Of a stretch of 64,000 nt of DNA, positions 38,304 to 63,959 are shown one piece after another (within the stretch, counting starts at the first letter, position 1; each line of letters opens with the position of its first letter). The notes under the pieces are model-generated. The model did not search any database. It saw only the letters and a program-made list of their open reading frames with translations, and had not been told where the DNA came from. The translations under genes were made by a program, and so were the position numbers. The stretch comes from Alphaproteobacteria bacterium. Its GTDB lineage: Bacteria > Pseudomonadota > Alphaproteobacteria > SMXP01. The stretch lies in contig JANQLI010000129.1 of assembly GCA_028280675.1 (NCBI GenBank), positions 1,833 to 65,832 on the forward strand, in the 5' to 3' direction.

Positions 38304-38308
38304 GGGCG

Positions 38309-39178: not shown

Positions 39179-39231
39179 CACGTCTGGTCCTTTCTTCAGT
39201 ATAAACCTAGATTCATCATGATCAAAGGCAC

Positions 39232-40278: not shown

Positions 40279-40543
40279 GATTTCATCCTAAACCGTTATG
40301 AGACATTAATTAAGCCGATTGACCGGATTTCAACGTTTCAATGGTTGTATTAGAGCATCCCTGCCCGCAGAGCAATCTTATCCCCCATAACAAATCCAGA
40401 AAGCCTATAGGATGGATAATTATGTATTCAAAATAAAAAATATTTAGAGAACACGGATAAAGATATATTAAAGGCGCAACAGTAAAAACTAGATATCATG
40501 CGAATCTCGGAATTGTTGTTAAAATCCGTAGGAATACCCAGCT

Positions 40544-42745: not shown

Positions 42746-42880
42746 CCCTCCTTGCCTTTTGCATTCTCAACGCTGCGTTATTGTGAACATTCATATTTTT
42801 AAGTATGCGTATGGATGAAATTTTTTCCATGAAGACTAATGTTACGAACGCAAACGTCGAATACAGCTAAGGTTCTGAGG

Positions 42881-44065: not shown

Positions 44066-44141
44066 AAAGACAATTTAGAGCTCAAGCAATCAATTATAAA
44101 TATAAACAACAGATTGATATCTTACCCCTTGGAAGACAAAG

Positions 44142-45236
44142 ATGGCAAAACCAGTACTAGTTCTTCATATCGGTCTACCAAAAACAGGCTCCACAGCAGC
44201 CCAAGAGTTTCTCTATGCCAATAGAGAATTACTCAAGACGCAGAAAATTTATTATCCCAACACAGGTATTATTGATGGAGCGCATCATCTATTAGCTACA
44301 TCGCTTTTAAAGCGCGTCCCCCCCGCTTTGCAAAAATTACCTCGACCTAACTCGCAAGCGATTTATCGAGATCTCATAAATAATTTTAATCACTCTGGAT
44401 GTAATACAATGCTCCTTAGTACAGAGTATTTTTCATTATTTGGTTTTCCATATCAGAAACATGGCCGAGAATTTATTGCAGATTTTTTTCGTGATTTCGA
44501 CATACGCATCCTCGCCTATCTTCGCCATCAATTACCCCGCTATGAATCTACGTACAGCCAAGAGGTGCGAAACGCAAAACTATCCCAACCTGTGTACCAC
44601 CAAGAATTTTTTCAGGATTTTATATCGCGAAAGGGAAATTACTACACATTTCTAATTGACCAGTGGGCTGAAACATTTGGAAAGTCAGGACTTATAATCA
44701 GGCCTTTTGTACGATCTCTTTTGCACAAGCGGAATATAATATATGATGTACTAGACCAAATTAACGCACCCTTAGATGCCACATGGAAATTTCCAATGCA
44801 CGAAGCTAATCAGGCTCTTTCGTATTATCGTATTGATCTCCTCAACAAACTTACTACCCTGTCACTTCCTAGAGATGTTAAAGACTCATCTTATGATGCA
44901 ATATCATCACTTCCGCTTCTTGACTGTGAGCGCGTCAAAACAACCATACTGTCTGACAAAGAGCGGGCCCTTTTGATCACACAATTTGAAGAAGATAATC
45001 AGAAACTAAATTTAAAGTATAAAGATGCTCTCAAAGGCCTTACGCTTGATGCACAACAGTTAGATAAAACACCAAAATACCATGAAGGCCTTGATCATAT
45101 TTTTCTCCATCAATTTGCAGATAAATTCTCCGATAAGCATAATGATCTAGGACGAGAGTTAAGTACATTAATCCTCTCACAATGCAAGCAAGACGATATG
45201 TTAAAATCATTTGCTGATCAGCTCAATAAACTATGA
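44142..45236 (+). CDS. P-loop sulfotransferase-like protein
   Basis: N-terminal LVLHIGLPKTGSTAAQ resembles the sulfotransferase 5'-PSB P-loop. It is paralogous to the N-domain of the next gene. A sulfotransferase function is inferred only. Confidence 0.35.
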   Translation: MAKPVLVLHIGLPKTGSTAAQEFLYANRELLKTQKIYYPNTGIIDGAHHLLATSLLKRVPPALQKLPRPNSQAIYRDLINNFNHSGCNTMLLSTEYFSLFGFPYQKHGREFIADFFRDFDIRILAYLRHQLPRYESTYSQEVRNAKLSQPVYHQEFFQDFISRKGNYYTFLIDQWAETFGKSGLIIRPFVRSLLHKRNIIYDVLDQINAPLDATWKFPMHEANQALSYYRIDLLNKLTTLSLPRDVKDSSYDAISSLPLLDCERVKTTILSDKERALLITQFEEDNQKLNLKYKDALKGLTLDAQQLDKTPKYHEGLDHIFLHQFADKFSDKHNDLGRELSTLILSQCKQDDMLKSFADQLNKL

Positions 45237-47995: not shown

Positions 47996-48066
47996 ACGCG
48001 GCTGTTTACATTTCACACGCGCCCTACCAAGGAAAATCTGGCTAACTTTTTCCTAGGGAGCAATTC

Positions 48067-49968: not shown

Positions 49969-50028
49969 TAAAGTGATTGAAAAATATGTATAGCTGAATG
50001 TTGAACATCTAAGTTTAGGGGAAAAGGG

Positions 50029-51324
50029 GTGCCGCTCTCTGTCAGAAGATCTTACCGTGCCGCCGCGAATGCAATTTCCCGAGGGGAGGGTTGGGGGACT
50101 CTCACACGCATCAAAAATGAACTTCAAATGTCACCCGCGATGGAAAAAAGTGGCGATCTCTTTCGCTCTCTCTACAACCATCGCAATATTGATTGCGCGG
50201 CTAACCTCCTGAGCACATCAAATGGGTCAAAGTTTTTTGATTACGAACTGAGCACCATGGTGCCGGCAGCATACATGCCCCGCGTGCATACGGCATCGCA
50301 TTCCACACTTCTGCCCACACGTGCGGTTTATCCAAATGATTGGCAATTTGACGGATACTTTGACCACATTGCTTACGATAATAAAGGCAATCCCATCCCA
50401 TCGGCCAATCACCTTATCTCGCGCTATAAAGGGTATTTAGACAATCCGGAAATGCAAAATAAAGACATCAAGTTAACCCCCCTAGGGGGCCCCCATTATC
50501 ATATGGGTTTCTTAATCACCCATTATGGCCACTTTATACTCGAGGTATTGACCCGCTATTGGCATGCTTTGCAAACGGGCGTCGATCCAAACACCATTTT
50601 TGTGTTTCATATATGGCAACGCGATATTGAGAATGCTTTGAATGACGCTCTTAAAAATCGCCTTTTTAAAGGTTATTGGGCGGACTATCTCAATGCCCTT
50701 GGCTTGTCTCAAGAAAACACGCTCTTTCTGACGCACCCAACATCATTTCACTCAATAACCCTGCCGCAATATGCGGTCAGCCTGTCCGCCTCCGACTGTT
50801 TTATCAGTGATGCAGCTCTTCCTGTTTGGCGTTTTTTAAATAGTGAAATGTCCGCTGCCTATTATACAAATAATCCAGAAAAAAACTTTGGCGATCGCGT
50901 TTACATTTCGCGTCGTAAGGTCGCCAATCCTAACCGCGGCAGAGTCTATAGCAATGAAGCTGAGATTGAGGATCTTTTTCGTTCAAAAGGGTTTTTCATT
51001 CTCTACCCTGAAGACCTCGAATCTGAATATGAAAAACAAGCCGTGCTCTCAAATGTGCGCTTTCTCGCAGGCGCACCTGGGTCGGGCCTGCTAAGTTCAG
51101 TCTTTATTCCGCATCAGGCTGATGTCTTGATGATCATCAGTGAACAAGCCTACAAAACCAATCCAGCCGTGATCCATCAAATAGCCATGAATACCCTGGT
51201 GGGACATCGCACACACGCATATTTCGAGCATGATCTCGCGATGGGATCGGAGCCCCAACAACCTCCGATAAACTTAACAAAACTTGAAAAGGCGCTTGAT
51301 AAGACTCTGTCTTCCTGCCTATAG
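50029..51324 (+). CDS. GT61/DUF563-family glycosyltransferase (paralog 1 of 3)
   Basis: YHMGFLITHYGHFILEVLTRYW and the C-terminal ...EAEIEDLFRSKGFFILYPEDLESEYEKQAVLSNVRFLAGAPGSGLLSSVF match DUF563 core motifs. Probable GTG start. Confidence 0.5.
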   Translation: MPLSVRRSYRAAANAISRGEGWGTLTRIKNELQMSPAMEKSGDLFRSLYNHRNIDCAANLLSTSNGSKFFDYELSTMVPAAYMPRVHTASHSTLLPTRAVYPNDWQFDGYFDHIAYDNKGNPIPSANHLISRYKGYLDNPEMQNKDIKLTPLGGPHYHMGFLITHYGHFILEVLTRYWHALQTGVDPNTIFVFHIWQRDIENALNDALKNRLFKGYWADYLNALGLSQENTLFLTHPTSFHSITLPQYAVSLSASDCFISDAALPVWRFLNSEMSAAYYTNNPEKNFGDRVYISRRKVANPNRGRVYSNEAEIEDLFRSKGFFILYPEDLESEYEKQAVLSNVRFLAGAPGSGLLSSVFIPHQADVLMIISEQAYKTNPAVIHQIAMNTLVGHRTHAYFEHDLAMGSEPQQPPINLTKLEKALDKTLSSCL

Positions 51325-51337
51325 AGTTTGATAAACA

Positions 51338-52564
51338 TTGCCGAAAGACGAAGGCTATAAATTTGTAATGGCCCCTTATATTCCAAAAACGCAATACAAG
51401 GATTTATTTCGGCGTCTCTATACCCACGAAGACCTTGCCAGTTTTGAAACGTTAACACATCACCTCTCTGAACCGCCAGACTACTACAAACACAGTCTTG
51501 CTTTTTCTCCAGCAAATTTCACCCCAACCTCCATCGACGTTGATGGCGCTTATTTATTTCCATTTGTGGCACCACAACAAGTTCCCCAGTCACGCATTAT
51601 TGAACATGTTGTTTATGATCATGAACTCAATCCTGTGACAATCGCAAATCACATCAAGGCCTTTTATAATGGATATGAGGACCATCCAGATTTACCTGCC
51701 TACCCCTTCTCAAAGAACACCATACTCGAGCATATCCCCGGCACATCATACTATATGGGTCTTCTGCTTCCTCATTTTGGGCATTTCATTCTGGAAGTCA
51801 TCACGCGGCTTTGGTGTCGTTTGAAGGATGAAGAAAAAAAACTGTCGAAATTTATTTTTCATATTGTTGGTCAGCGCGATGAAGAGGGAATTAAGCAAAA
51901 TCTTTTTGGCGGTTATTGGAAAGCTTACTTTGATGCTTTCGGCATCACACCAGATAATTTTGTAGTCGCCAACCGTCCCCTTCACTGTGATAATTTAATT
52001 GTTCCACAATGCGCACTGAGTATTGGCGTTTACCGTGCACCCGATTGTTTCCTTTCAAAAGATGCTGTGCGTGTTTGGCGCGAAACGCATCGGCGTATCA
52101 TCGACTCTACACCACACACAGATCAAAATAGCGCCTATGAGAGGATCTATATCTCACGGAGAAAGGTTGAGAATCCGTTCCAAGGGCGATTATTAGAGAA
52201 TGAAGAAGACATAGAGCAGCTATTGATGAAAAAAGGATTTCACATCCTCTACCCCGAAGACATTAAGTCGGAAGCTGAAAAACATGTCATTCTCTCACAA
52301 TGCCGAACACTAACAGCTCTTTCAGGATCAGGCCTGATGAACAGTGTTTTCTTACCAAAAGGCAGTAAAGTTCTACAGATTATCAGTGATCAAATAAATC
52401 GCGGCTTGCCGGGACTTGAGCAACAAATCTCTATTGATACTCTCTGTGAACATCATTCATATGTTTACTACCAAGATGACTATGTGAGTGATACGAAGAA
52501 ATCAGCACGTATAGACCTTCGTCCCTTTGAAAGCGCAATTGATTCCTTTCTATATGACAAATAA
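51338..52564 (+). CDS. GT61/DUF563-family glycosyltransferase (paralog 2 of 3)
   Basis: HFGHFILEVITRLW ... GFHILYPEDIKSEAEKHVILSQCRTLTALSGSGLMNSVF. Confidence 0.5.
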   Translation: MPKDEGYKFVMAPYIPKTQYKDLFRRLYTHEDLASFETLTHHLSEPPDYYKHSLAFSPANFTPTSIDVDGAYLFPFVAPQQVPQSRIIEHVVYDHELNPVTIANHIKAFYNGYEDHPDLPAYPFSKNTILEHIPGTSYYMGLLLPHFGHFILEVITRLWCRLKDEEKKLSKFIFHIVGQRDEEGIKQNLFGGYWKAYFDAFGITPDNFVVANRPLHCDNLIVPQCALSIGVYRAPDCFLSKDAVRVWRETHRRIIDSTPHTDQNSAYERIYISRRKVENPFQGRLLENEEDIEQLLMKKGFHILYPEDIKSEAEKHVILSQCRTLTALSGSGLMNSVFLPKGSKVLQIISDQINRGLPGLEQQISIDTLCEHHSYVYYQDDYVSDTKKSARIDLRPFESAIDSFLYDK

Positions 52565-53747
52565 TTTCATGTTTGATCTTTTTAAACGACAGAATAAAAC
52601 AACACACCTTGCAACCCTCGCGGATGTCGGGACGAATCTGACACAGTCAGACCATTACGCACACTACCTCAAGAGCATCTCGGTATCGGAATTTACGCCA
52701 AAGGCAAGCACGGAGAAAGACGCCCTCCTCTTGCCATTGCATGCACACTTACAAATACCTGCCTCACTGATGATGGAGCATGCGGTTTATGACAATGCGC
52801 TGAATCCCATTACCTATGCAACCCACATCAAACCCCTTTACCGCGGATTTAAACTACATCCCGATCTCCCTAAATATCCGGGCTATGACCTATCAGAATA
52901 TGAAGCTCTTCCTGGCCGATCATATTATGGAGGCATATTACTAGATCAATTCGGGCATTTTATTCTTGAGACTCTCACCCGCTTTTGGCGCGCGGTGGAA
53001 ACTGAAGAGCGCAAATTTGATCAGGTTCTGTTTCATGTCCTCAGTGATCGCAATACGATGCATATGCGCAAGCGTCTCTTTCGTGACTTTTGGAGTAATT
53101 ATTTTCATGCCCTTGGCATTACGGAAGACAACTTTATTTTTATCGAGAAACCCTTCATTGCGGAAGAGCTTATTATTCCACAATGCAGTGTCAGTATTGG
53201 CATGTTTAATCGAAGCAATTGCTATATCTCGGAGAAAGCACACGGTGTGTGGTCAATTTTAAACCAGCGCATGGCAGGAGAGTATAGACCAAGCGACACC
53301 TCAACGGCACGTCCTGAAAAAATATATATGTCACGCCGTAATGTAAATTATTCGTTCCGCACAGGACAAATTGAGAACGAGGCCGACATTGAACACCTCT
53401 TCCGATCACGTGGATTCCATATCATTCGCCCTGAAGAACTCAGCTCAGAAAATGAGAAACACTATCTTCTCTCTGAATGTAAGATTCTCGCAGGGCCAAT
53501 TGGATCAGGTATGCACAATAGTGTTTTCATGAAACCTGGTGGGCATATTCTCAGCATCATTAGCGAGCAAATGAATGAAGGTGTGTGTGCGCTGGAGCAT
53601 CTTCTTGCACTCGGGGCGTCTCTTGGTCACAACATGTATCAATATTACCAATGTGACCTTGACCCAGAGCAGGAAAGTAAGGATAGCGTAATTAATCTCA
53701 CGCAACTTTCACAGGCGCTTGATCACTTTTTAGAGCGCAGCACGTGA
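52554..53747 (+). CDS. GT61/DUF563-family glycosyltransferase (paralog 3 of 3)
   Basis: QFGHFILETLTRFW ... GFHIIRPEELSSENEKHYLLSECKILAGPIGSGMHNSVF. Start is uncertain (52527, 52554 or 52569). Confidence 0.5.
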   Translation: MTNNFMFDLFKRQNKTTHLATLADVGTNLTQSDHYAHYLKSISVSEFTPKASTEKDALLLPLHAHLQIPASLMMEHAVYDNALNPITYATHIKPLYRGFKLHPDLPKYPGYDLSEYEALPGRSYYGGILLDQFGHFILETLTRFWRAVETEERKFDQVLFHVLSDRNTMHMRKRLFRDFWSNYFHALGITEDNFIFIEKPFIAEELIIPQCSVSIGMFNRSNCYISEKAHGVWSILNQRMAGEYRPSDTSTARPEKIYMSRRNVNYSFRTGQIENEADIEHLFRSRGFHIIRPEELSSENEKHYLLSECKILAGPIGSGMHNSVFMKPGGHILSIISEQMNEGVCALEHLLALGASLGHNMYQYYQCDLDPEQESKDSVINLTQLSQALDHFLERST

Positions 53748-53757
53748 CCCTGGGCAC

Positions 53758-54645
53758 TTACCATGGTTCATAACAATCATGAAAGCGCGCAAGAATGTCT
53801 TGATGATTCTCAACATACGTTGAGATGTCATCGGCATGCACTTTTTGAAACCGTGTTCCTGTGTCTAACGCCAACTGGATATCTGCATCTGTGACATCGA
53901 CGTCCAATGTATCGCACAAGGCACGGAAATGCGCCTTGGGATCTGACTGAAAATCTTCATAACGCAAGATCTCAACCCGCGCCCCAGCAGCATGTAGTTC
54001 TGAGACAATCTTCTTTTTACGCTTGTGAATATACCGACAGCGATGAATAAAAGTTCCTAAGCGGTCTACATCAACATAGATTTTTTCATGATTTGCATCA
54101 TGACTTCCTTGGAGATGCCCAAAACTATGCGTGCCATCGCCATGATAGGTCGAAAGCGCCCAGCGCAGAATGTCTTGGCGGACCGCCATAAACACAACCA
54201 CACCATAGGCACGAAAAATCCGAAAAAGTCTCCGCTTCATATCCCTTAAAAGGTAGTCATTATATTGCCGTTGAAAATATTGGGCCCACCGCGGCGATGT
54301 TTGCATTGTTGTCGCTAAGACACGTGACGGTGGATGAAGACGCATCTTAAACCCAATCGATTTGGATGCATCAATAGATGCAATTTTTTGGCATGATGTT
54401 TGCTGATAAGCAGCATTCACCTTATGCAAATCAACGGTGTGCCCTGAGAAAATCTCCTCAAAAATAAGCTCCAGATTTTTATTGGACATCGCACCGCACT
54501 TTGCAAATTCAAAGGGTTCCCACTGCGGGGTGGATTGTGCATCTGTTAGGGAATGAACGATTGAGAAAGCATCAAGATTATTCAAGAGAGACACTTGCGC
54601 CATTGTGCCTTCCTTTTCTTGAAAAATGATGACGAAATTCTTCAT
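53758..54645 (-). CDS. Hypothetical protein with sulfotransferase-like motifs
   Basis: Degenerate P-loop-like FVIIFQEKEGT near the N-terminus, and RYEDFQSDPKAHFRALCDTLDV resembling the sulfotransferase C-terminal YEDL..DP...LC.FLG block. It is the only minus-strand gene in this part of the cluster. Confidence 0.3.
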   Translation of the reverse strand: MKNFVIIFQEKEGTMAQVSLLNNLDAFSIVHSLTDAQSTPQWEPFEFAKCGAMSNKNLELIFEEIFSGHTVDLHKVNAAYQQTSCQKIASIDASKSIGFKMRLHPPSRVLATTMQTSPRWAQYFQRQYNDYLLRDMKRRLFRIFRAYGVVVFMAVRQDILRWALSTYHGDGTHSFGHLQGSHDANHEKIYVDVDRLGTFIHRCRYIHKRKKKIVSELHAAGARVEILRYEDFQSDPKAHFRALCDTLDVDVTDADIQLALDTGTRFQKVHADDISTYVENHQDILARFHDCYEPW

Positions 54646-54810: not shown

Positions 54811-55827
54811 ATGGTGCCTGGAAAGACAATCCGCACAATGACACACACCTACACCATTCGCCTTGCTGGAACAGACACAGCCATTGCCTGTCCTGAGAGC
54901 GTGTCTGTGCTGAATGGATTTTTAAATCAAGATGTGCAGCTTGTGCATGGATGCAAGAATGGCCGCTGCAAGTCATGCAAGGCGACCCTTCTTGAAGGTC
55001 GCATTCAGAACGAAGACGGGGAAACAATCGACTCAGGCGAATTTCTTAGTTGTTCGTATATACCCCTCTCCGACCTCGTGATCGAAGCGGACTATTGCCC
55101 TGAACTCGCGGATATTCAAAGGCGCACATTGCCCTGTAAAGTGAATCAGGCCACGTATGTGGGCGACGATATTCTGATTCTCACCCTACGCACACCTCCC
55201 AATCAGCGCCTTGTTTACCTCCCGGGGCAATATCTTGATTTAACGTATCAAGGGGTCTGCCGGTCCTATTCCATCGCCAATTCCCCAAATGCAGACGGCA
55301 CAATCGAGCTGCATATTAAACGCTATTCTGGCGGTGAAATGAGCGCTCTCTTTTTTGACAAGCCGATCACCACGAACACGCTCATGTCCATGCGCGCGCC
55401 CCTTGGGACATTCTTCGTCAGAGATGGAGAGGCCCCTTTAGTTTTCTTAGCCACAGGAACAGGGTTGGCGCCCATCAAAGCTATGATTGAATCTCTCATA
55501 CACGAGGGCGACAAACGGCCCATCACACTTCTCTGGGGCTGCCGCGAGGAGGCAGATTTTTATGACAAGCGCCCCACTGTATGGGCCTCTCAATATGATC
55601 ACATAAAAGTCGAGCAGGTTCTCTCAAAGCGTCAAAGAACCACAGCAAAAAAACACTATGTGCAAGATCATCTGTTAACCATACATCCCGATTTAAGCGG
55701 ATTCGATGTTTACGCTTGCGGGTCCCTGACTATGATAGAAGACGCGGAAAGCCTATTATGCGAATATGGCCTGGATAAGCGCCGGTTTTTTTATGATGCC
55801 TTTGTGGCATCCCATGAGAAGGATTGA
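54811..55827 (+). CDS. ddhD: CDP-6-deoxy-delta-3,4-glucoseen reductase (E3; 2Fe-2S ferredoxin + FAD/NAD reductase)
   Basis: Plant-type ferredoxin Cys cluster (C..GRCKSC...C), RSYSIAN FAD-binding motif, GTGLAPI NAD-binding motif. A start at 54838 is possible. Confidence 0.65.
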   Translation: MVPGKTIRTMTHTYTIRLAGTDTAIACPESVSVLNGFLNQDVQLVHGCKNGRCKSCKATLLEGRIQNEDGETIDSGEFLSCSYIPLSDLVIEADYCPELADIQRRTLPCKVNQATYVGDDILILTLRTPPNQRLVYLPGQYLDLTYQGVCRSYSIANSPNADGTIELHIKRYSGGEMSALFFDKPITTNTLMSMRAPLGTFFVRDGEAPLVFLATGTGLAPIKAMIESLIHEGDKRPITLLWGCREEADFYDKRPTVWASQYDHIKVEQVLSKRQRTTAKKHYVQDHLLTIHPDLSGFDVYACGSLTMIEDAESLLCEYGLDKRRFFYDAFVASHEKD

Positions 55828-56606
55828 TCAGCATGAAAGCTGTCATTCTGGCTGGAGGATTGGGCACGCGCTTAAGCGAAGAAACAACCCTTAAGCCAAA
55901 ACCCATGATCGAGATTGGGGGAAAGCCCATTCTCTGGCACATTATGAAGATCTATTCTCATCACGGCATCAATGATTTCATTATCTGCTGTGGCTACAAA
56001 GGCTATGTGATCAAAGAATACTTTGCGAATTATTTTTTACACACCTCAGATGTGACATTCTCCATGCAAGACAATAACATGGAGGTGCATCATAAACGCA
56101 CTGAGCCCTGGACTGTGACCTTAATCGATACCGGTGATTTAACCCCGACGGGGGGGCGTTTATTGAAGGTCAAAGAGCATCTTGAGAATGAATCGGCCTT
56201 TTGCTTTACCTATGGTGATGGCGTTGGCAGTATCGATATTCAGGCCAGTCTGTGCTTTCATAAAGAACATGGCAAAAATGCTACTGTCACAGCCACCTAT
56301 CCACCTGGACGCTTTGGCGCGCTGGAAATTCAAAACGGGAAGGTGGAGCGCTTTCAAGAAAAACCAGAAGGTGATGGGTCTATGATCAATGGCGGGTTCT
56401 TTGTCCTCTCACCGAAAGCACTCGATTTCATTGCCAATGAAGAGACGATTTGGGAGCAAGAGCCATTGGCGACGCTGGCTGAGAAGGGCGAATTGATGGC
56501 TTTTGAACATCATGGATTCTGGCAGCCCATGGATACTTTGCGCGATAAAAATCTGCTGGAAGATTTATGGGCGTCTGGCGATGCGCCGTGGAAGATGTGG
56601 GCATGA
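55824..56606 (+). CDS. ddhA: Glucose-1-phosphate cytidylyltransferase
   Basis: MKAVILAGGLGTRLSEET...KPMIEIGGKPILWHIM matches RfbF/DdhA. Confidence 0.85.
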   Translation: MISMKAVILAGGLGTRLSEETTLKPKPMIEIGGKPILWHIMKIYSHHGINDFIICCGYKGYVIKEYFANYFLHTSDVTFSMQDNNMEVHHKRTEPWTVTLIDTGDLTPTGGRLLKVKEHLENESAFCFTYGDGVGSIDIQASLCFHKEHGKNATVTATYPPGRFGALEIQNGKVERFQEKPEGDGSMINGGFFVLSPKALDFIANEETIWEQEPLATLAEKGELMAFEHHGFWQPMDTLRDKNLLEDLWASGDAPWKMWA

Positions 56607-57685
56607 CGATTGATCCAACCTTTTGGAAGGGAAAAAAAGTTTTTCTCACCGGCCACACAGGCTTTAAAGGCAGTTGGCTTTCACTTTGGCTGCAACATAT
56701 GGGCGCGCATGTGAAAGGGTATGCGCTCACCCCCCCCACAACGCCAAGCTTGTTTCAAGAAGCGCAGGTTGAGAAAGGCATGGATTCGGTCATTGCCGAT
56801 ATTCGTGACTTTGATCGGTTAAAAGCGGAAATCACCTCATTCGCTCCAAACATTATCATACATATGGCGGCCCAGCCTTTGGTGCGCTTTTCTTATGAGG
56901 ACCCAATCGAAACCTATTCCACCAATGTCATGGGAACGGTCCATTTACTCGAAGCCATACGCACCATTGACGGGGTGCAAGTCTGCCTCAATGTGACCAG
57001 CGACAAATGTTATGAAAATCAGGAATGGGATTGGGGTTATCGCGAAAACGAGCCCATGGGCGGGCGTGATCCCTATAGCAATAGCAAGGGCTGTGCAGAA
57101 TTGGTCACTGCGGCGTTTCGCGAGTCATTTTTTCACCCCGATCGTTTCGATCAACATGGCTGCGCCATCGCAACGGGCCGGGCTGGCAATGTTATCGGCG
57201 GCGGCGACTGGGCCGATGATCGGCTTGTGCCGGATGTTCTCACCGCTTTTGAGAAACAGACGCCAGTAGTTATCCGAAACCCCCATGCCATACGTCCATG
57301 GCAACATGTCCTCGAACCCCTCGCCGGTTACCTAACTCTTGTGCAAAAGCTTTGGGAAGATGGGCCGCGCTATGCTGGACCATGGAATTTCGGCCCCAAT
57401 GAAGGGGATGCAAAACCGGTCTCTTGGATTTGTGACGCCATGGTCAAAGAGTGGCCAGGAAGTAGCTGGTCAACCGATAATGGGGATCACCCACACGAAG
57501 CCCATTATCTCAAGCTCGATAGCACAAAAGCGCGTGAGTATTTAGGATGGCGTCCCGTTTGGTCACTCGGCGATGCCCTCAAGCGCATCACAGCTTGGCA
57601 TCAAGCATGGCTGGCCGGCGAAAATATGCACGACTACACCCAGGCGGAAATCTCGACCTATCAAACGCTAGCAAATAGCCCGTAA
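56603..57685 (+). CDS. ddhB: CDP-glucose 4,6-dehydratase
   Basis: [19 protein letters not shown] is the RfbG/DdhB signature. Its start is ATGA-coupled to the ddhA stop. Confidence 0.85.
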
Positions 57686-57705
57686 TTCAGCTACATCTCA
57701 GCACC

Positions 57706-59019
57706 ATGTCAAAAGAAGAGCTCAGAAAACACATTGCCGCATTAGTCGAAGACTATGCAGCGCTGCAATATGCGCCAGCATCCTTTGTGCCGGGGGAAAG
57801 TGCTATCCCCCCCTCGGGGAAAGTGTTGGATGCGGATGAACTGAAACATATGGTCGAAGCGTCCCTTGATGGCTGGCTGACGACGGGGCGGTTCAATGGC
57901 ATGTTCGAGGAACATCTTGGCGCTTTCCTCGGCGCAAAGCATGTACTCACCACGGTCTCCGGGTCGGCGGCAAATCTGCTTGCCGTAACGGCCCTGACAT
58001 CGCGAAAGTTAGGGGACCGCGCGCTCAAACCAGGCGATGAGATGGTGACAGTGGCCGCCGGGTTTCCAACGACTGTTAATCCAATTATTCAAAATGGTTT
58101 AGTTCCTGTCTTCGTCGATGTGGATATTCCAACCTACAATATTGATGTGAATTTGATTGAAGGGGCGATTAGCAAAAAAACCCGCGCCATCATTCTTGCC
58201 CATACGCTTGGTAATCCGTTTGATCTCAAGCGCGTGCGTGAAATAGCTGATAAGTATAATCTCTGGCTTATCGAAGATTGCTGTGATGCGCTCGGATCGA
58301 CATATGATGGAAAAATCGTCGGCACGACAGGGGATATTGGTACGATTAGCTTTTACCCGGCCCACCAAATTACCATGGGTGAAGGCGGCGCTGTGTTTAC
58401 AAATTCGGATGAACTCGAGACCATTATCGAATCATTCCGCGATTGGGGACGTGATTGCTATTGTGATCCTGGATGTGACAATACCTGTGGCAAACGTTTC
58501 GAACAACAGCTTGGGAGCTTGCCGTTCGGATACGATCACAAATATACCTATTCCCATATTGGTTATAATCTGAAAATCTCAGACATGCAGGCGGCTTGCG
58601 GCGTTGCACAACTCAAAAAACTTCCTGGCTTCATTCAAGCACGCAAAGACAATTTTAATTTTCTGCATAAGGGTCTTACCAGTTGTTCAGACTTTCTCAT
58701 CCTACCGGAAGCCACACCGAACACGGACCCTTGTTGGTTTGGCTTTCCCATCACTATAAAGGACAGCGCTGGACAACAGCGCGTCGATCTGACGCGTTAT
58801 TTGGATGACCATAAAATCGGAACCCGTTTGTTGTTCGCAGGCAACCTCACACGGCAGCCCTATTTTGAGGGCGTGAATTATCGTATCGCGGGCACACTCA
58901 ACAATACAGACCGTATTATGAATCAAACATTTTGGCTGGGTGTTTATCCCGGCCTAGGGCAAGAGCAATTGCGCTTTGTTATTGAAAAAGTGGAAGAGTT
59001 CTTTGGCCTTCATTTTTAG
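57706..59019 (+). CDS. ddhC: CDP-6-deoxy-D-xylo-4-hexulose-3-dehydrase (E1; PMP-dependent DegT/DnrJ/EryC1 family)
   Basis: 437 aa of the aminotransferase-fold DegT family, with Cys-rich C-terminal insert motifs ([15 protein letters not shown]) typical of E1 [2Fe-2S] dehydrases. Confidence 0.75.
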
Positions 59020-59031
59020 TCTATATGGCAA

Positions 59032-59922
59032 TTGCCTATGACACTTCTTATCACAGGCGCTTCTGGTTATCTTGGGTCACATTTAGTGAATCATTTTGCG
59101 CCCACACATAACATCATCGCCATCACACGCGCGGGGTCAGATACGTCGCGTCTCGGGCGGCATAAGAATGTTCATTTACGCACACTTGCGCGCAATGACC
59201 CAATAAGCAAGGCCGTCGAGGGTGAAACTGTGCAGGCTGTGCTCCATACAGCAACGAACTATGGCCGTCACGGGGAAACCAAAGATGAAATTTGGCGCAC
59301 CAATGTGACCTATGCATCAAACACCCTTGCATGGGCAACAAAGGCGGGTGTTCAAGTTTTTATCAATGCCGATACGGTGCTCGATCCCCGCGTCAGTGAA
59401 TATGCGGCCAGTAAAGCCGCCTTTCTTGAGCAGAGCGAGGTGTTATGTCACCAAAGCGAAATCCAATTTATAAATGTCCGTCTTGAGCAATTCTATGGTC
59501 CTGCTGTGGATACAACGAATTTTATCGGTTACATCGCGAACAGTCTGCTCACGCACTCATCTTCAATAGATCTTACGGCAGGCGAACAAAAGCGTGACTT
59601 TGTTTATATCGACGATGTGGTCAACGCATATGCGTGTATTTTGGAAAATTTACCGGGATTCGCAAAACGCGATTCAGTTGACGTCGGCACAGGTGTCGCC
59701 ACACATCTTCGCGGCCTTGTGGAAATGATGAAAGAGCTTACAGGCGCAAACACCGCGCTTAACTTCGGCGCTTTACCTTACCGCACACATGAGATGATGG
59801 ACTCCCAATCCGATTCCTCTCGCTTGAATGCGCTGGGATGGCGATGCAACACCTCTCTGACAGAGGGACTCAGGATGACACTTCAAGCCACTGAGCGCGC
59901 TTTACATATGGGCAATGATTGA
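59032..59922 (+). CDS. CDP-paratose/abequose synthase-like NAD(P)-dependent reductase (short extended SDR)
   Basis: LLITGASGYLGSHLV, and the size (296 aa) typical of RfbS/RfbJ-type CDP-4-keto-3,6-dideoxyhexose reductases. Confidence 0.55.
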   Translation: MPMTLLITGASGYLGSHLVNHFAPTHNIIAITRAGSDTSRLGRHKNVHLRTLARNDPISKAVEGETVQAVLHTATNYGRHGETKDEIWRTNVTYASNTLAWATKAGVQVFINADTVLDPRVSEYAASKAAFLEQSEVLCHQSEIQFINVRLEQFYGPAVDTTNFIGYIANSLLTHSSSIDLTAGEQKRDFVYIDDVVNAYACILENLPGFAKRDSVDVGTGVATHLRGLVEMMKELTGANTALNFGALPYRTHEMMDSQSDSSRLNALGWRCNTSLTEGLRMTLQATERALHMGND

Positions 59923-59965
59923 GAGGAGATGAAGATCCTGCTAAAACCAGGACAAAGGGGAGATT

Positions 59966-61222
59966 ATGGGTGAACACAAGCAAGATATTGGAACCTTAGG
60001 AGAGACAACATGCCGGGCCTGCATGAGCCAGAACATGTTCATGTTTCTCGACCTCGGCATGCACCCGCCTGCGAATCAGTTTCTTAAGAAGGAAAATCTA
60101 GAGCGTGAAGAAAAATTCCCGCTACCGGCGCATACGTGTCTTGAGTGCGGGTTGATCCAAATCCCGGATTATGTTCCTGCTGATTTCTTTCGCGATTACC
60201 TTTATGTCCCCTCATTTTCCACAACCATGCACAAGCATTTTGGTGATTACGCCAAGCTAATCCAAGATCGTTTCATCAACGACCCTTCACAGCAGGTTCT
60301 TGATATTGGATGTAATGATGGTCTGTTGCTCATCCATTGCCAGGAACGTGGCCTTGCAACACTTGGTATTGACCCAGCGGCAAATCTCAGCGATGCACCG
60401 CGCGCCAAAGGCATTGAAATTCTCAATGAATATTTCGGCGCGGAGATGGGCCAAGAAGTCCGGCAAAGTCATGGCGCCATGCAAGTCATCACCACATCGA
60501 ACACATTCAATCACATTGATGACTTACACAGCTTTATGTCAGGCGTGAAAGCCCTTCTTGCAGATGACGGTGCATTTATCGTTGAAGTGCCGCAAGCGCT
60601 GACTCTTGTTGAAAATAATGAATTCGATACAATCTACCTCGAACATGTTTCAGAATTTAGCGTCAAATCATTTATTGAAATTTGCAAATTCTTTGACATG
60701 GTGGTGTTCGATGTTAAACCTATTCCCGTGCATGGTGGTTCGATGCGAGTTTTTATGCAACACAAAGATTGCGCCCGCCCGATCAATACGCATGTAGATG
60801 AGTGGCTGGACCGGGAACACGAGGCAAAACTTTTCGAGCGCGAAACATATGTTGCCCTTGCAAAGCGCGTGAACACAATAAGGGACGACTTACTGTCTTT
60901 GATCACGCGTTTGAAAGGGGAAGGGAAAAGCGTTGCTGGATATGGTGCCCCGGCAAAAAGCTGTACCCTTTTGAATTACTACGGTATTGGTCCAGAACAC
61001 CTTGATTATCTCGCTGACAAAAGCACCATGAAACAAGGCCTTTATTCACCAGGCATGCATATTCCTATCGTCTCACCCTCCGTGTTAGAGGAACAACAAC
61101 CGGATTATGTAATTATCCTTGCCTGGAATTTCGCTGATGAAATCATAGCTGAGCAAACAACATATCAAGCGCGCGGCGGAAAATTCATCCTTCCCATTCC
61201 TGAACCCCGTATTTTTGAATGA
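59966..61222 (+). CDS. NDP-hexose C-methyltransferase-like (TylCIII/C3-methyltransferase family) with N-terminal zinc ribbon
   Basis: CRAC...CLECG Zn-ribbon, SAM-binding LDIGCNDGLL, and a C-terminal dimerisation domain. The length (418 aa) is typical of sugar C-methyltransferases. Confidence 0.55.
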   Translation: MGEHKQDIGTLGETTCRACMSQNMFMFLDLGMHPPANQFLKKENLEREEKFPLPAHTCLECGLIQIPDYVPADFFRDYLYVPSFSTTMHKHFGDYAKLIQDRFINDPSQQVLDIGCNDGLLLIHCQERGLATLGIDPAANLSDAPRAKGIEILNEYFGAEMGQEVRQSHGAMQVITTSNTFNHIDDLHSFMSGVKALLADDGAFIVEVPQALTLVENNEFDTIYLEHVSEFSVKSFIEICKFFDMVVFDVKPIPVHGGSMRVFMQHKDCARPINTHVDEWLDREHEAKLFERETYVALAKRVNTIRDDLLSLITRLKGEGKSVAGYGAPAKSCTLLNYYGIGPEHLDYLADKSTMKQGLYSPGMHIPIVSPSVLEEQQPDYVIILAWNFADEIIAEQTTYQARGGKFILPIPEPRIFE

Positions 61223-62199
61223 ACACGCAAGGGTCAAACGCGTTTTTCCAAGGCCGGTCCGTTCTGGTGACCGGAGCAACCGGGTTTATCGGCTCACACC
61301 TCACGCGGGCGCTTGTGAAGCAAGGTGCAGAGGTTACGGCGCTTGTCCGCGCCAGCAGCAAAACAGATCGTATTAACGATCTGCGCGAACAGATTTTATT
61401 TGCTGAAGGTGACTTAGAAAATCTCGCGTCGTTAGAAGAAGCAATTAGCACAACGAAACCCGAAATCATTTATCACCTCGCTTATGCCACATCTGTACGA
61501 TCAAATGACAATCCCGTTGAGGCCTTACAAACCAGTTTACGTGTGAATGTGCAAGGGAGCATCAATCTCTTACAAGCTGCCCACACACATAAAGACACCA
61601 TTAAAAAATTTATTCGCGCAGGCGGACTCGAAGAATATGGCGATGGAGAGGTACCTTACCAGGAGGGTCAGCGTGAAAAACCCATCTCCGCTTATTCTGC
61701 GAGCCAAGTTGCGCTAACGCATTACGGCCAAATGTTCCAACAGGTCACCCCTATCGAGCTTATCACTCTACGCCTTGCTCTTGTCTATGGACCATATCAG
61801 TCTGACTCCTTCTTTATCCCTTCTCTCATTAAGCACTGCCTCGCCAACAAACAATTTAACATGACCAAAGGCACCCAGCGCCGCGATTACCTCTATATTG
61901 ATGATGCAATTAAGGGCTTACTTTCAGCCGGACGCACTGCAAAGCTGCACGGCTGCGTCATCAATATAGCGAGCAGCAAGGCGTATGCCATGAACGACAT
62001 CGTGGATAAGATTTGTTCCCTTACGGATTATAGCGGCATCATTCTCCGTGATAAGCTCTCACGCCGCTTTATAGACATTGACAATCTTGTGGCAGATAAT
62101 CGTCACGCGAAGATGCGCCTGCAGTGGCAACCAAAATGGCGGCTAGACGATGGATTACGCGAAACTGTGAACTGGCATAAAGGCCAGATGAAAGACTAA
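61219..62199 (+). CDS. NAD-dependent epimerase/dehydratase family protein
   Basis: VLVTGATGFIGSHL Rossmann motif, YxxxK, 326 aa. It is not RfbD-like. Confidence 0.65.
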   Translation: MNTQGSNAFFQGRSVLVTGATGFIGSHLTRALVKQGAEVTALVRASSKTDRINDLREQILFAEGDLENLASLEEAISTTKPEIIYHLAYATSVRSNDNPVEALQTSLRVNVQGSINLLQAAHTHKDTIKKFIRAGGLEEYGDGEVPYQEGQREKPISAYSASQVALTHYGQMFQQVTPIELITLRLALVYGPYQSDSFFIPSLIKHCLANKQFNMTKGTQRRDYLYIDDAIKGLLSAGRTAKLHGCVINIASSKAYAMNDIVDKICSLTDYSGIILRDKLSRRFIDIDNLVADNRHAKMRLQWQPKWRLDDGLRETVNWHKGQMKD

Positions 62200-62219: not shown

Positions 62220-63959
62220 TTACTTGTCCAAACATGTTGCAAGATCCAATGAGAGTGTCTTTAATGTGATCTTCGGGTTGATCGATGGGGCATCAACATA
62301 TGTTATTCCAGAGTTATCAGATTGATGAGCCGTTAGATCAAATCCGGTTCTTATAAATGATTGATAATTTTTAACGGCTTTTTGAGTCTCCAGGTGCCTT
62401 TGCAAACGGGTCTTTTTTCGTTTCTGATTTTTCATACTTTGCAATTTTTGACTGATGTCATTTTGGAATAGTGCGAGATGCGTGGGAAGAACAAAGAGGG
62501 CCTGTTCTGACGTTGATATTTCACAAGATGGCAACGCCAACGCATCTACAATTTCATACTTATGCCGTAAACGATTCAAGTCAGGGGCTTGAAAATGTAA
62601 TTCACGTGATAAATAGAGCGGTATATCTAGATTTTGAGCATTGAGCTCATCGATGATAACACTGCGGGTTTCTGTATGAATTGCGACGGCCCAAGCTTTG
62701 GGCCATACCTCAAAACTTTTCTGCCCAAGTAAAATAAAGACCACAATAATAACAGGAAATACTGCAGCATTCTGTTGTTGAGGGAGAAACGCGATAAGAG
62801 CCCGCCGCAGAAATTTATGTATGACAAATAACCCACAAACAAAAAAGACAGACAAAAAGGGGTATAGTTGCACATAGTTGCGGTGGAAGTTGACCTTCAT
62901 ACTGGTCATAAACAAGAAAAACACAAAAGGGTAGATCAGCAAAAAGGCAATATCTCTTTTATAGTAAGCAGCACCGACTCCGAATAGAATGATCAAACTG
63001 GCAACTGCGCCTATGTTTTCATTGAATGTGCGCAATTGAAACAACATATGCGATAGACCAGGCTCGGAGGTGAAATCCGGACCATGGCCCGCAACGCTGT
63101 AATGATTGAACTCTCTTAAAAGTGCAGCGACAAAATCGTTCACCTCAATCACAGAATAAGGCATCGCTAGAACAAATGTGAGAGGAGGCACAAGAAAAAG
63201 GATTGCAAACTGACGGGGGGAAGGCGTCTGCCCAGTTGTGCGCCAGTGCAGGAGGAATGCCGCAAGGGGCATAAGGCCTACGAGGCCAGAATTATATTTC
63301 ACAGCGACAGCACATCCCATTGCAATGAGACTGACGATAAAATCACGCTCCAACTTTTCTTGTTTGTAACGTAGCGCATAGTAAGTGCAGACAATAACAA
63401 AAAATGCAACCGGTGTATCCGGTGTTGTGCGGATACCGTGTGTAATATGAAAAGGGATCACAGCGAGAAATAATGCCGCCGTAAACGAAAGCCATTTATT
63501 CTGGAAAATTCTTTGTACGATTAAGTATGTGAAAACAACCATGCCTGCGCTCATTAGCGCCGTCAGCATGCGATTCCAATACACAAAACCGGGGTGGGAC
63601 ACATCCCAATACCACCCCGTATCGACCGCAATTTTGACCTCATCCATGCTTGCCATATGATAAGGCGAAGACACGGGAAGCGCATGGCGAATAGCAAAGT
63701 AGATCGTATCAACAAACGCACTGAGATAGATCGGCAGCGACCCATAACTATAGAAATGCGGGTTGAGGGTCCCCTCGCGCAACATGCCGAGCGCATAGCT
63801 AACGGTTTGCGGTTCATCCCAATAATGAAGGTAAGGAAGCCCGTTGCCGACCTGTAACGCACGCAAAATAAAAGCCACGGCAAAGGCCAACCCTAGCAGG
63901 TAATATTTTTTCATCACGCGGGACATACCTGAGAGTAGAATGCTCCTCATGATTCTCAA
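62220..63959 (-). CDS. GT39/ArnT/PMT-like membrane glycosyltransferase (lipid-carrier dependent)
   Basis: Multi-TM N-terminal region with a DE-containing first periplasmic loop (YWDEPQT), in a protein of about 560 aa. A start at 63911 (MKKYY) is possible. Confidence 0.6.
   Translation of the reverse strand: MRIMRSILLSGMSRVMKKYYLLGLAFAVAFILRALQVGNGLPYLHYWDEPQTVSYALGMLREGTLNPHFYSYGSLPIYLSAFVDTIYFAIRHALPVSSPYHMASMDEVKIAVDTGWYWDVSHPGFVYWNRMLTALMSAGMVVFTYLIVQRIFQNKWLSFTAALFLAVIPFHITHGIRTTPDTPVAFFVIVCTYYALRYKQEKLERDFIVSLIAMGCAVAVKYNSGLVGLMPLAAFLLHWRTTGQTPSPRQFAILFLVPPLTFVLAMPYSVIEVNDFVAALLREFNHYSVAGHGPDFTSEPGLSHMLFQLRTFNENIGAVASLIILFGVGAAYYKRDIAFLLIYPFVFFLFMTSMKVNFHRNYVQLYPFLSVFFVCGLFVIHKFLRRALIAFLPQQQNAAVFPVIIVVFILLGQKSFEVWPKAWAVAIHTETRSVIIDELNAQNLDIPLYLSRELHFQAPDLNRLRHKYEIVDALALPSCEISTSEQALFVLPTHLALFQNDISQKLQSMKNQKRKKTRLQRHLETQKAVKNYQSFIRTGFDLTAHQSDNSGITYVDAPSINPKITLKTLSLDLATCLDK

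Follow-up and report, generated by a model that had tools for sequence, protein, structure and literature searches.

A candidate pathway to C-methylated 3,6-dideoxyhexoses in an alphaproteobacterial polysaccharide locus

A seven-gene operon from an alphaproteobacterium joins the classical 3,6-dideoxy sugar pathway of Salmonella and Yersinia with a sugar C-methyltransferase in one cell-surface polysaccharide locus. The operon occupies positions 54811–62199 of the forward strand in a 64,000-nucleotide stretch of DNA (the window). On balance, its sequence suggests that the operon supplies a surface polysaccharide with CDP-activated 3,6-dideoxyhexoses, and that one of these would carry a C-methyl branch.

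Organization of the operon and its surroundings

All seven open reading frames are present, intact and tightly packed, and match their family profiles over nearly their full length. The first gene, ddhD (54811–55827), encodes an E3-type reductase with the Pfam domains Fer2 (17–84), FAD_binding_6 (109–201) and NAD_binding_1 (212–313), shares 38% identity with the E3 of Salmonella, and heads the operon as it does in Yersinia and Salmonella (PMC5399914). It is followed by ddhA (rfbF; 55824–56606), encoding glucose-1-phosphate cytidylyltransferase (TIGR02623, 470 bits with a cut-off of 300; 74.6% identity to Salmonella RfbF), ddhB (rfbG; 56567–57685), encoding CDP-glucose 4,6-dehydratase (TIGR02622, 502 bits with a cut-off of 278; 61.6% identity to RfbG), and ddhC (rfbH; 57706–59019), encoding the E1 CDP-4-keto-6-deoxyglucose 3-dehydrase (NF011936 RfbH, 741 bits with a cut-off of 423; 70.9% identity to RfbH). 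DdhC carries the E1 signature, with His220 in place of the PLP lysine together with Cys193, Cys251, Cys253 and Cys261, and is assigned as a PMP- and [2Fe-2S]-dependent E1 3-dehydrase.

The remaining three genes encode SDR1 (59032–59922), a 296-aa extended SDR (Pfam Epimerase) resembling the NAD(P)H 4-ketoreductases that act as paratose or abequose synthases; CMT (59966–61222), a SAM-dependent NDP-hexose C-methyltransferase of the TylC3/MtmC/TcaB9 family (Methyltransf_13, _23 and _14); and SDR2 (61219–62199), an atypical extended SDR of 326 aa (Pfam Epimerase/GDP_Man_Dehyd). Profile matches and Salmonella identities agree with an earlier, sequence-only reading of the ddhD-A-B-C genes, the reductase and the methyltransferase. 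The same reading described the genes as translationally coupled, which holds strictly at two junctions, the ATGA overlaps of ddhA/ddhB (probable ddhB ATG at 56603) and CMT/SDR2, and only loosely at the rest: the ddhD stop lies 5 nt from the probable ddhA ATG (55833), and the remaining gaps are 12–43 nt. These junctions were read directly from the sequence.

Convergent with the operon, on the reverse strand at 62220–63959, lies a gene for a PMT_2/ArnT-like membrane glycosyltransferase of the GT-C fold (PF13231 PMT_2 and PF02366 PMT), of which no BLAST-detectable homologue was found in other CMT loci. The remaining polysaccharide locus (40544–53747, forward strand) encodes several glycosyltransferases (a GT2–GT4 fusion, a GT8-like protein, a 920-aa GT4 and three GT61-like paralogues), sulfotransferase-like ORFs and an AT3–SGNH acyltransferase, and has a G+C content of 38–45%, against 50–55% in its flanks. 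The rmlC, rmlA and rmlB genes of the dTDP-4-keto-rhamnose branch (37737–40278, reverse strand; Pfam dTDP_sugar_isom, NTP_transferase and GDP_Man_Dehyd) encode proteins that share 57, 65 and 62% identity with RfbC, RfbA and RfbB of Salmonella, respectively. They lie approximately 14.5 kb upstream of ddhD and 20 kb from CMT, on the opposite strand. As had been remarked earlier, rfbD is missing from this set: in a profile search of the 64-kb window, no ORF reached the RmlD model.

The methyltransferase, the SDR proteins and their relatives

CMT comprises a Zn-ribbon, a Rossmann methyltransferase domain and a C-terminal domain. It retains the Zn-binding Cys16, Cys19, Cys58 and Cys61 as well as His183, Tyr224, Glu226 and His227, as aligned to the TcaB9 catalytic set. 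The proposal that it is a sugar C-methyltransferase was borne out by homology search, with matches to MtmC (PDB entry 4rv9, E = 2e-89, 39% identity), KijD1 (5t64, 5e-80, 35.5% identity) and TcaB9 (3ndi, 1e-79). The protein groups with the solved sugar C-methyltransferases rather than with N- or O-methyltransferases. The solved relatives found among these PDB matches are all 3-C-methyltransferases, all acting on dTDP sugars. CMT likely methylates C3, although the regiochemistry and stereochemistry of its product are not readable from sequence.

SDR1 has a canonical YAASK active-site motif (Y124xxxK128) and is 29.9% identical over the full length to the Salmonella CDP-abequose synthase (E = 5e-42). 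Its relatives at 39–45% identity bear the automated JGI name 'CDP-paratose synthetase', and in two classical-type loci (L087 and L088) they directly follow a ddhC-type 3-dehydratase, which is the prt position; the paratose/abequose-synthase-like assignment made earlier therefore stands. It is established that the identity of the dideoxyhexose is set by the genes directly downstream of ddhC (PMC5399914).

The survey covered 169 loci with CMT relatives, with counts restricted to loci having enough flank. Loci were split at a CMT identity of at least 46% to that of the window, and a dehydratase was sought within 7 kb. A His-type (E1- or ColD-like) DegT 3-dehydratase lies nearby in all 21 loci at or above this identity and in none of the 72 below it (Fisher p = 3e-21, for loci that are not phylogenetically independent). 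Near the 21 close CMTs, ddhA is found in 17 cases, and rmlA and an RmlC-like gene in none. In a neighbour-joining tree lacking bootstrap support, the 3-dehydratase-linked CMTs and that of the window form one clade, with the exception of locus L103. Within the clade an SDR2-type gene directly follows CMT in most loci, and outside the window CMT and SDR2 are the only partners of the dehydratase, with no SDR1 and no other pathway. The sequence-only reading had predicted a C-methylated 3,6-dideoxyhexose; the 21/21 partnership with a 3-dehydratase and the absence of rmlA support such a CDP-linked product. Among the loci surveyed, neither ddhD nor SDR1 occurs in any clade locus besides the window. 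On this account the window could be a mosaic of recent origin, and its modules might not act together in the manner proposed.

SDR2 has neither the catalytic Lys nor the catalytic Ser of SDRs (Y159-S-A-S-Q163 and G135-G-L137) but keeps the Rossmann motif GATGFIGSH, the Tyr and an Arg after β2 typical of NADPH users. With both residues missing, a ketoreductase is more probable than the epimerase or dehydratase first suggested; for the same reason, reductase activity is something we infer. In clade relatives, the CMT stop and the start of the SDR2-family gene are usually less than 100 nt apart, and 15 of the 17 CMT-coupled SDRs have YxxxQ/L/M instead of YxxxK. When the 149 nearest 50%-cluster representatives are compared with SDR2, 26 have Y...Q, nearly all of them among the closest. 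SDR2 is accordingly placed, by sequence comparison, in a conserved subfamily coupled to 3-dehydratase-linked CMTs, and is probably a dedicated 4-ketoreductase for the methylated sugar. In the open-access texts searched, no characterised enzyme was found for the SDR2 subfamily or for the CMT clade.

Predicted pathway and alternatives

By strong homology, DdhA produces CDP-glucose, DdhB converts it to CDP-4-keto-6-deoxyglucose, and DdhC (E1), with DdhD (E3) as electron donor, removes the 3-OH to give CDP-4-keto-3,6-dideoxyglucose. CMT would use SAM to place a methyl group, via an enolate, on a carbon beside the 4-keto group, most likely C3, as in all solved family members, with C5 as the alternative, and SDR2 with NADPH would reduce the 4-keto group to yield CDP-3,6-dideoxy-3-C-methylhexose. 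Because CMT needs the 4-keto group, it would act before any 4-reduction; 3-deoxygenation before or after methylation would lead to the same carbon skeleton. In parallel, SDR1 would act on the intermediate that carries no methyl group and reduce it, giving a sugar of the paratose or abequose type. SDR1 and CMT would share the 4-keto intermediate and therefore compete at this branch point, so that the operon more likely yields two products than forms a single linear route.

A single linear pathway, which we regard as unlikely, would have SDR1 as the 4-ketoreductase of the methylated sugar and SDR2 as a non-redox partner or scaffold for CMT, or in some other step. The gene order ddhC-SDR1-CMT-SDR2 fits this arrangement, as does the full catalytic motif of SDR1 set against the missing Lys and Ser of SDR2; however, the SDR1-free clade loci would be left with no reductase. 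Moreover, the Rossmann motif, Arg and Tyr of SDR2 are conserved in at least 26 50%-cluster representatives, and in the reduction direction a Tyr may be able to act as proton donor even where the Lys is absent.

Alternatively, CMT may methylate CDP-4-keto-6-deoxyglucose and SDR2 form a vinelose-like CDP-6-deoxy-3-C-methylhexose that keeps its 3-OH, leaving E1/E3 and SDR1 to make only an unmethylated dideoxyhexose. Vinelose, a CDP-linked 6-deoxy-3-C-methyl sugar of Azotobacter, provides a precedent, and many distant CMT relatives lie with ddhA and ddhB and without a 3-dehydratase, often beside an RmlC-like epimerase. The CMT of the window falls outside that part of the tree, however, in a clade strictly associated with His-type 3-dehydratases, and the dehydratase of the SDR1-free loci would have nothing but CMT and SDR2 to work with, which makes this early methylation quite unlikely.

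It is improbable that the operon serves two separate pathways, with ddhDABC and SDR1 giving plain CDP-paratose or CDP-abequose, and CMT and SDR2 acting on the dTDP-4-keto-6-deoxy sugar from rmlBAC. The classical pathway is already complete with SDR1 alone, CMT–SDR2 is a self-contained, translationally coupled pair, and dTDP sugars are the substrates of all solved family members. The absence of rmlD from the window leaves room for a dTDP-linked role in which SDR2 replaces RmlD; the outcome would be a dTDP-6-deoxy-3-C-methylhexose akin to 3-C-methylrhamnose or evalose. SDR2 reaches only 47.6 bits against the RmlD model (cut-off 224), however; CMT and SDR2 sit inside the ddh operon, away from rmlBAC; and the close CMTs of the survey neighbour a 3-dehydratase and, in 17 of 21 cases, ddhA, but never rmlA or an RmlC-like gene.

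Likewise improbable is the favoured pathway with NovU-like methylation at C5, giving a 3,6-dideoxy-5-C-methylhexose in which C5 is gem-dimethyl: this carbon is also α to the 4-keto group and the same family includes the NovU-type C5-methyltransferases of the noviose pathway, but the structurally characterised relatives found all methylate C3, which after deoxygenation would be an unhindered methylene, and known C5 methylation comes after 3,5-epimerisation, with no RmlC-like gene in any clade locus.

Comparison with known systems

The gene combination is not rare but widespread, cultured Alphaproteobacteria included; the sugar itself seems undescribed, in that no paper describing a methyl-branched 3,6-dideoxy sugar of the predicted type was found in open-access texts. 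Uncharacterised rfbF-rfbG-DegT(His)-CMT-SDR loci are present in Roseibium aggregatum, Leisingera sp. S132, Ensifer adhaerens and Kaistia granuli, on plasmids and chromids, and further loci of this kind in Acidobacteriota, Gemmatimonadota, Binatia and Usitatibacter MAGs. Like the window, these loci have ddhA, a 3-dehydratase that has His where E1 does, and a CMT (49–60% identical) directly followed by a Lys-less SDR2-type gene; unlike the window, they have no ddhD and no SDR1. Among the cultured Alphaproteobacteria the dehydratase is ColD-like and has no Fe–S cysteines, whereas that of the MAGs is E1-like, with only 52–61% identity; the E1-type loci have a 4,6-dehydratase of another SDR lineage, approximately 30% identical to DdhB of the window. 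ColD, the GDP-4-keto-6-deoxymannose 3-dehydratase of the colitose pathway, has His for Lys, lacks Fe–S cysteines and needs no reductase partner. The ColD likeness is confined to the relatives, the window using the E1/E3 system.

In Salmonella and Yersinia pseudotuberculosis, the genes that come after ddhD-ddhA-ddhB-ddhC are prt, tyv, abe or ascEF. The window has the identical ddhDABC order, with DdhA, DdhB and DdhC sharing 62–75% and DdhD 38% identity with their Salmonella counterparts, a Prt/Abe-like reductase directly after ddhC, and the ddh genes within a polysaccharide cluster that also holds rml genes. It differs in its alphaproteobacterial host, whose PurH finds its best named matches in Rhodobacterales at about 72%, in the SAM C-methyltransferase and atypical SDR that follow the reductase, and in having no tyv-type epimerase, SDR2 lacking the catalytic Lys and matching Tyv (1orr) only at E = 8e-15.

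Yersiniose, which the sequence-only reading had given as an example, is only a loose analogy. Its ddhDABC and YerE/YerF proteins also lead from CDP-4-keto-3,6-dideoxyglucose to a branched-chain dideoxy sugar of an O antigen (PMC5399914), but its branch has two carbons, at C4, and is added by a ThDP-dependent flavoenzyme, whereas that of the window would be a one-carbon branch at C3 or C5 added by a SAM methyltransferase.

TylC3, MtmC, TcaB9 and KijD1 share with CMT the three-domain build, the Zn-binding Cys4, the TcaB9 catalytic set and a chemistry that requires a 4-keto sugar. These enzymes are part of the secondary metabolism of actinomycetes (antibiotic deoxysugars), where they act on dTDP-2,6-dideoxy or 3-amino-2,3,6-trideoxy sugars, whereas CMT is encoded in a CDP-glucose operon within a surface-polysaccharide locus and belongs to a separate, 3-dehydratase-tied clade. 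Their products carry a tertiary alcohol or amine at the branch; the predicted branch of the window, at a deoxygenated C3, would be CH–CH3.

Gene content of the ddh operon and its surrounding locus

The operon comprises seven open reading frames (ORFs) on one strand, located across 54811–62199 where the sequence-only reading had placed them. [quoted passage not shown] The last three genes encode SDR1 (59032–59922, +; 296 residues), the sugar C-methyltransferase CMT (59966–61222, +; 418 residues) and SDR2 (61219–62199, +; 326 residues), both SDRs being extended SDRs that match Pfam Epimerase. The profile matches are approximately full length in all seven ORFs, so that none looks like a pseudogene. 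Junctions read from the sequence comprise a 5-nt gap between the ddhD stop codon and the likely ddhA ATG (55833), ATGA overlaps at ddhA/ddhB (ddhB start at 56603) and at CMT/SDR2, and gaps of 12–43 nt elsewhere. Promoter and terminator scans of the operon were uninformative, with sites no more numerous than in shuffled sequence. The interpretation as dideoxyhexose genes joined by a C-methyltransferase is supported, with corrections.

The first part of the operon was compared by direct BLASTP with the depositor-annotated rfb region of Salmonella group B, which comes from a record mislabelled 'plasmid'. DdhA, DdhB and DdhC are 74.6%, 61.6% and 70.9% identical to RfbF, RfbG and RfbH, respectively. 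DdhA and DdhB exceed equivalog cut-offs, and DdhC belongs by score to the RfbH/DdhC/AscC equivalog, with NF011936 covering 5–437 of 440. DdhC has His220 at the position of the PLP-lysine of aminotransferases, and Cys193, Cys251, Cys253 and Cys261, which we take to be the unusual [2Fe-2S] motif (C193-X57-C251-X-C253-X7-C261) of E1, the 3-dehydrase; the motif was reportedly defined by Agnihotri et al. in 2004. Family score and signature residues point, by strong homology, to DdhC as E1, the CDP-4-keto-6-deoxyglucose 3-dehydrase. DdhD, encoded by the first gene of the operon, has its domains in the order of E3, the reductase partner of E1 (about 330 residues): a plant-type [2Fe-2S] ferredoxin domain at the N terminus and then an FNR-like FAD/NAD(P) domain, an architecture that dioxygenase reductases share. 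In the plasmid collection it matches Salmonella E3 best (37.7% identity, 242 bits), with other reductases at 196 bits or less; it scores 165 bits with the BenC model, far below the cut-off of 430, and NCBIfam has no E3 model.

In Yersinia and Salmonella the gene order ddhD-A-B-C is established, and the dideoxyhexose made is set by the genes just 3′ of ddhC (PMC5399914). SDR1, directly after ddhC, is a candidate CDP-paratose or CDP-abequose synthase (Prt/RfbS or Abe/RfbJ); it has a normal YAASK motif (Y124xxxK128) and is, by BLASTP, 29.9% identical to the Salmonella CDP-abequose synthase Abe (E = 5e-42). Its relatives at 39–45% identity are called 'CDP-paratose synthetase', an automated JGI name only. 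SDR1 does not score as RmlD (20.4 bits with TIGR01214, cut-off 224). At two compared loci (L087 and L088), an SDR1 relative lies right after the 3-dehydratase gene and before a second, longer SDR gene.

No ddhD or SDR1 homologue was found beside CMT in any other locus examined, and DdhA, DdhB and DdhC of the window are closer to their Salmonella counterparts (62–75% identity) than to those of the clade loci (45–61%), defined as loci whose CMT shares 46% identity or more with that of the window. The operon looks like a mosaic in which a classical ddhDABC-prt module is joined to a CMT–SDR2 module.

The operon sits at one end of a polysaccharide locus, with rmlC, rmlA and rmlB (37737–40278, −; 57–65% identical to the Salmonella genes) at the other. 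As noted from the sequence at the outset, these dTDP-rhamnose genes (rfbBAC) lack an rmlD (rfbD) anywhere in the 64-kb window, and the dTDP-4-keto-rhamnose reductase would therefore be encoded elsewhere in the genome or replaced. The G+C content is 38–45% over the glycosyltransferase part (40000–54000), 47–51% in the ddh operon and 50–55% in the flanking housekeeping genes, a pattern that suggests horizontally acquired, mosaic modules. The locus also encodes large multidomain glycosyltransferases, three tandem GT61-like (PF04577) paralogues with 34–41% mutual identity just upstream of the ddh operon (50029–53747, +), and an AT3-SGNH fused acyltransferase (48067–49968, +), suggesting that the polysaccharide is O-acetylated. 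Sulfation may occur as well, since sulfotransferase-like ORFs are present at 44142–45236 (+), 45233–47995 (+, N-terminal half) and 53758–54645 (−). The protein orf364 has a PAPS-loop-like motif (GLPKTGST) and no Pfam match, and is 25% identical to part of a 920-residue GT4 protein. Sulfotransfer_3 matches orf295 weakly.

A GT-C membrane glycosyltransferase gene of GT39/PMT_2 type (62220–63959, −) adjoins the CMT operon in the window. A GT-C gene of this type and a GtrA-family gene lie beside the CMT operon in Roseibium; the same position in Leisingera holds GtrA and an unannotated ORF (regions 3394–5471 of L089 and 3547–5600 of L090). A conserved link between these GT39 genes and the PMT_2 protein of the window was rejected, as BLAST detected no relation. 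Speculatively, the GT-C protein might transfer the sugar in the periplasm in a polyprenyl-phosphate-dependent manner.

CMT, SDR2 and the proposed pathway

CMT aligns over its full length with the solved sugar 3-C-methyltransferases MtmC (Protein Data Bank (PDB) entry 4rv9, E = 2e-89, 39% identity), KijD1 (5t64, 5e-80, 35.5% identity) and TcaB9 (3ndi, 1e-79). It shares the three-domain build of this family, with a Zn-binding N-terminal domain, a class I SAM methyltransferase domain and a C-methyltransferase C-terminal domain, and matches Methyltransf_13, _23 and _14 (PF08421, 64 bits; PF13489, 69 bits; PF08484, 197 bits), all above cut-off. In an alignment of 20 sequences, the Zn ligands Cys16, Cys19, Cys58 and Cys61 are invariant, as are Tyr78, Tyr80, Tyr224, Glu226 and His227, and His183 is nearly so. 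Tyr78/80, His183, Tyr224, Glu226 and His227 align, in PDB chains, with the catalytic set of TcaB9 (Tyr76, His181, Tyr222, Glu224 and His225; mutant PDB entries 4e2w–4e33), whose roles were reportedly established by Bruender and Holden. The homology search against characterized enzymes confirms the family proposed from sequence alone, the NDP-hexose C-methyltransferases (here TylC3/MtmC/TcaB9/KijD1), and CMT does not cluster with N- or O-methyltransferases. Homologues number more than 5000 at E < 1e-30, the closest being 60% identical.

At the clade loci, an SDR2-family gene usually starts less than 100 nt from the CMT stop codon. In 15 of 17 cases its product has Tyr-x-x-x-Gln/Leu/Met in place of YxxxK. 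GGL, GSL or GTI occupies the position of the catalytic Ser/Thr of extended SDRs; in SDR2 of the window the two motifs read G135-G-L137 and Y159-S-A-S-Q163. When 1.84 billion representatives were searched exhaustively, the nearest 149 (representatives of 50% clusters) included 26 with Y...Q; almost all of these 26 belong to the closest relatives, and more distant ones return to YxxxK. The substitution common to the closest relatives is thus a conserved subfamily trait and not decay. Lys-less SDRs lie beside CMT in the window and in L003, L004, L010, L082, L085, L091–L093 and L096.

In SDR2 the Rossmann motif is kept, as is an Arg following β2, and SDR2 would accordingly bind NADPH. Epimerases and dehydratases of the same fold require a Lys-activated tyrosinate for their first oxidation; for a pure ketoreductase, a proton donor suffices. 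We therefore infer from the missing Lys that SDR2 is a dedicated 4-ketoreductase. This revises the initial assignment of the last gene as an epimerase/dehydratase. Identity as a Tyv/RfbE CDP-tyvelose 2-epimerase (1orr, 8e-15; 9rl0, 4e-15) was rejected on YSASQ in place of YxxxK and GGL at the Ser/Thr position, and identity as RmlD on a score of 47.6 bits with TIGR01214 (cut-off 224). We know of no characterized member of this Lys-less subfamily. Four fusion proteins of 656–702 residues (P0383, P0394, P0473 and P0500) have an SDR2-like C-terminal domain; their N-terminal domains (about 330–380 residues) gave no BLAST match to CMT, DdhA or DdhC.

In the proposed pathway, CDP-glucose would be converted to CDP-4-keto-6-deoxyglucose and, by E1/E3, to CDP-4-keto-3,6-dideoxyglucose, steps predicted by strong homology. 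CMT would then methylate a carbon α to the ketone, most likely C3, and SDR2 would reduce C4. Since CMT requires the ketone, SDR1 cannot precede it on the same molecule; most simply, SDR1 would draw off a share of the intermediate and turn it into an unmethylated sugar of the paratose or abequose type, so that the locus would supply two CDP-dideoxyhexoses. Alternatively, SDR1 could be the real reductase of the methylated sugar. A further alternative concerns the site of methylation, which could be C5 instead of C3.

Association of CMT with 3-dehydratases

The neighbours of CMT were classified, with the window proteins as queries, in 80 genome and 80 metagenome loci together with plasmid loci and exact-protein contexts, and counting was restricted to loci extending 4 kb or more upstream and 2.5 kb or more downstream of CMT. 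All 21 loci whose CMT reaches 46% identity to that of the window encode, within 7 kb, a member of the DegT family bearing His at the position of E1 residue 220; none of the 72 loci with a more distant CMT does (Fisher p = 3e-21, a significance overstated by the mutual relatedness of the loci). Among the latter, Lys-type aminotransferases are present in 12 and RmlC-like epimerases in 27. The 21 clade loci contain ddhA in 17 cases and neither rmlA nor RmlC-like genes in any. These context data argue against methylation without deoxygenation. They also bear on the nucleotide carried by the substrate, CDP or dTDP, and argue against the alternative in which CMT acts on a dTDP sugar supplied by the rmlD-less rml genes.

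The His-type proteins fall into two groups. E1-like proteins with the Fe-S cysteines (L003, L008, L010, L045, L082, L091, L093, L096, L097 and L103) are mostly 52–61% identical to DdhC (44% in L103) and have all four Cys residues, with two exceptions: L093 has Ser193, and L097 aligned incompletely. The others, found in CDP-glucose operons (L002, L004–L007, L009, L085, L089, L090, L092, L098 and L099, and also L088), lack these cysteines and resemble ColD, the His-type 3-dehydratase of the colitose pathway; RefSeq labels them only 'aminotransferase', and they include the proteins of Ensifer, Kaistia, Roseibium and Leisingera. By sequence they look like reductase-independent 3-dehydratases acting on CDP sugars. 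In a neighbour-joining tree, calculated without support values, the CMT of the window and the 3-dehydratase-linked CMTs form one clade, except for that of L103. The strict co-occurrence and the tree together argue that this CMT clade works with 3-deoxygenation of a CDP-hexose by either type of dehydratase, and the predicted product draws its principal independent support from this link.

The arrangement rfbF-rfbG-His-DegT-CMT-SDR is present on plasmids of Roseibium aggregatum, Labrenzia and Leisingera sp. S132, in Ensifer adhaerens replicons of the plasmid collection and in Kaistia granuli. The genes, occurring as they do in cultured members, are therefore not rare in Alphaproteobacteria; it is the sugar that appears undescribed, as we found no account of it in the open-access literature. 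PurH is at best 80% identical to any protein matched and about 72% identical to its counterparts in many Rhodobacterales, which fits an alphaproteobacterium lacking close relatives among sequenced genomes. The ddhA, ddhB and 3-C-methyltransferase genes of Sinorhizobium meliloti pSymB (SMb21416–18; PMC4053727) were rejected as members of the same class, the CMT being 36% identical and the locus lacking a 3-dehydratase. Another arrangement, distinct and very common, places an RmlC-like epimerase gene after ddhA, ddhB and CMT, in that order; its CMT is 39–45% identical to that of the window (L012, L018, L023, L027–L030, L036, L041, L043, L044, L062, L063, L065, L069 and others). Its titled records are mainly from Verrucomicrobiota, and also from Acidobacteriota and Nitrospirota; it is predicted to yield CDP-6-deoxy-3-C-methyl-L-hexoses (vinelose-like), and our search found no paper on it.

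Relation to known dideoxyhexoses

The 3,6-dideoxyhexoses are immunodominant O-antigen sugars, made by textbook radical deoxygenation chemistry, and yersiniose is, to our knowledge, the only branched 3,6-dideoxyhexose derivative known so far. In full-text searches of open-access papers, no 3,6-dideoxy-C-methyl sugar and no characterized CDP-linked enzyme of the CMT clade was described, and nothing relevant emerged on the LPS chemistry of the carrier genera. All matches for '6-dideoxy-3-C-methyl' were 2,6-dideoxy sugars of the mycarose or cladinose type. Neither of two candidate papers proved a precedent: PMC7851689 treats the Tyv epimerase with no methyltransferase context, and 'C-methyl' in PMC10918830 refers to methylerythritol.

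We tentatively propose, with doubt still somewhat outweighing confidence, that the CMT/SDR2 pair marks a widespread and undescribed class of surface sugars, the CDP-3,6-dideoxy-3-C-methylhexoses, which would be the first natural sugars methyl-branched on a deoxygenated ring carbon. Their 3-deoxygenation would proceed by either the E1/E3 or the ColD-type route, and they would be finished by a new subfamily of SDR ketoreductases without the canonical Lys and Ser; the window would be a mosaic making a methylated and a plain dideoxyhexose from one intermediate. The methyltransferase/3-dehydratase partnership spans soil and marine phyla as well as cultured Alphaproteobacteria (Roseibium, Leisingera, Ensifer and Kaistia), which makes the prediction directly testable on available strains. 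If correct, a SAM-methylated dideoxyhexose would be a new type of monosaccharide for bacterial glycobiology, and the CMT-coupled SDR subfamily, lacking as it does the catalytic Lys, poses a modest enzymological question in its own right. All components come from known families, so the novelty is incremental and not categorical: the pathway is a new variant, probably widespread, in which TylC3-type C-methyltransferases would reach from the dTDP-linked sugars of antibiotics to the CDP-linked sugars of the cell surface.
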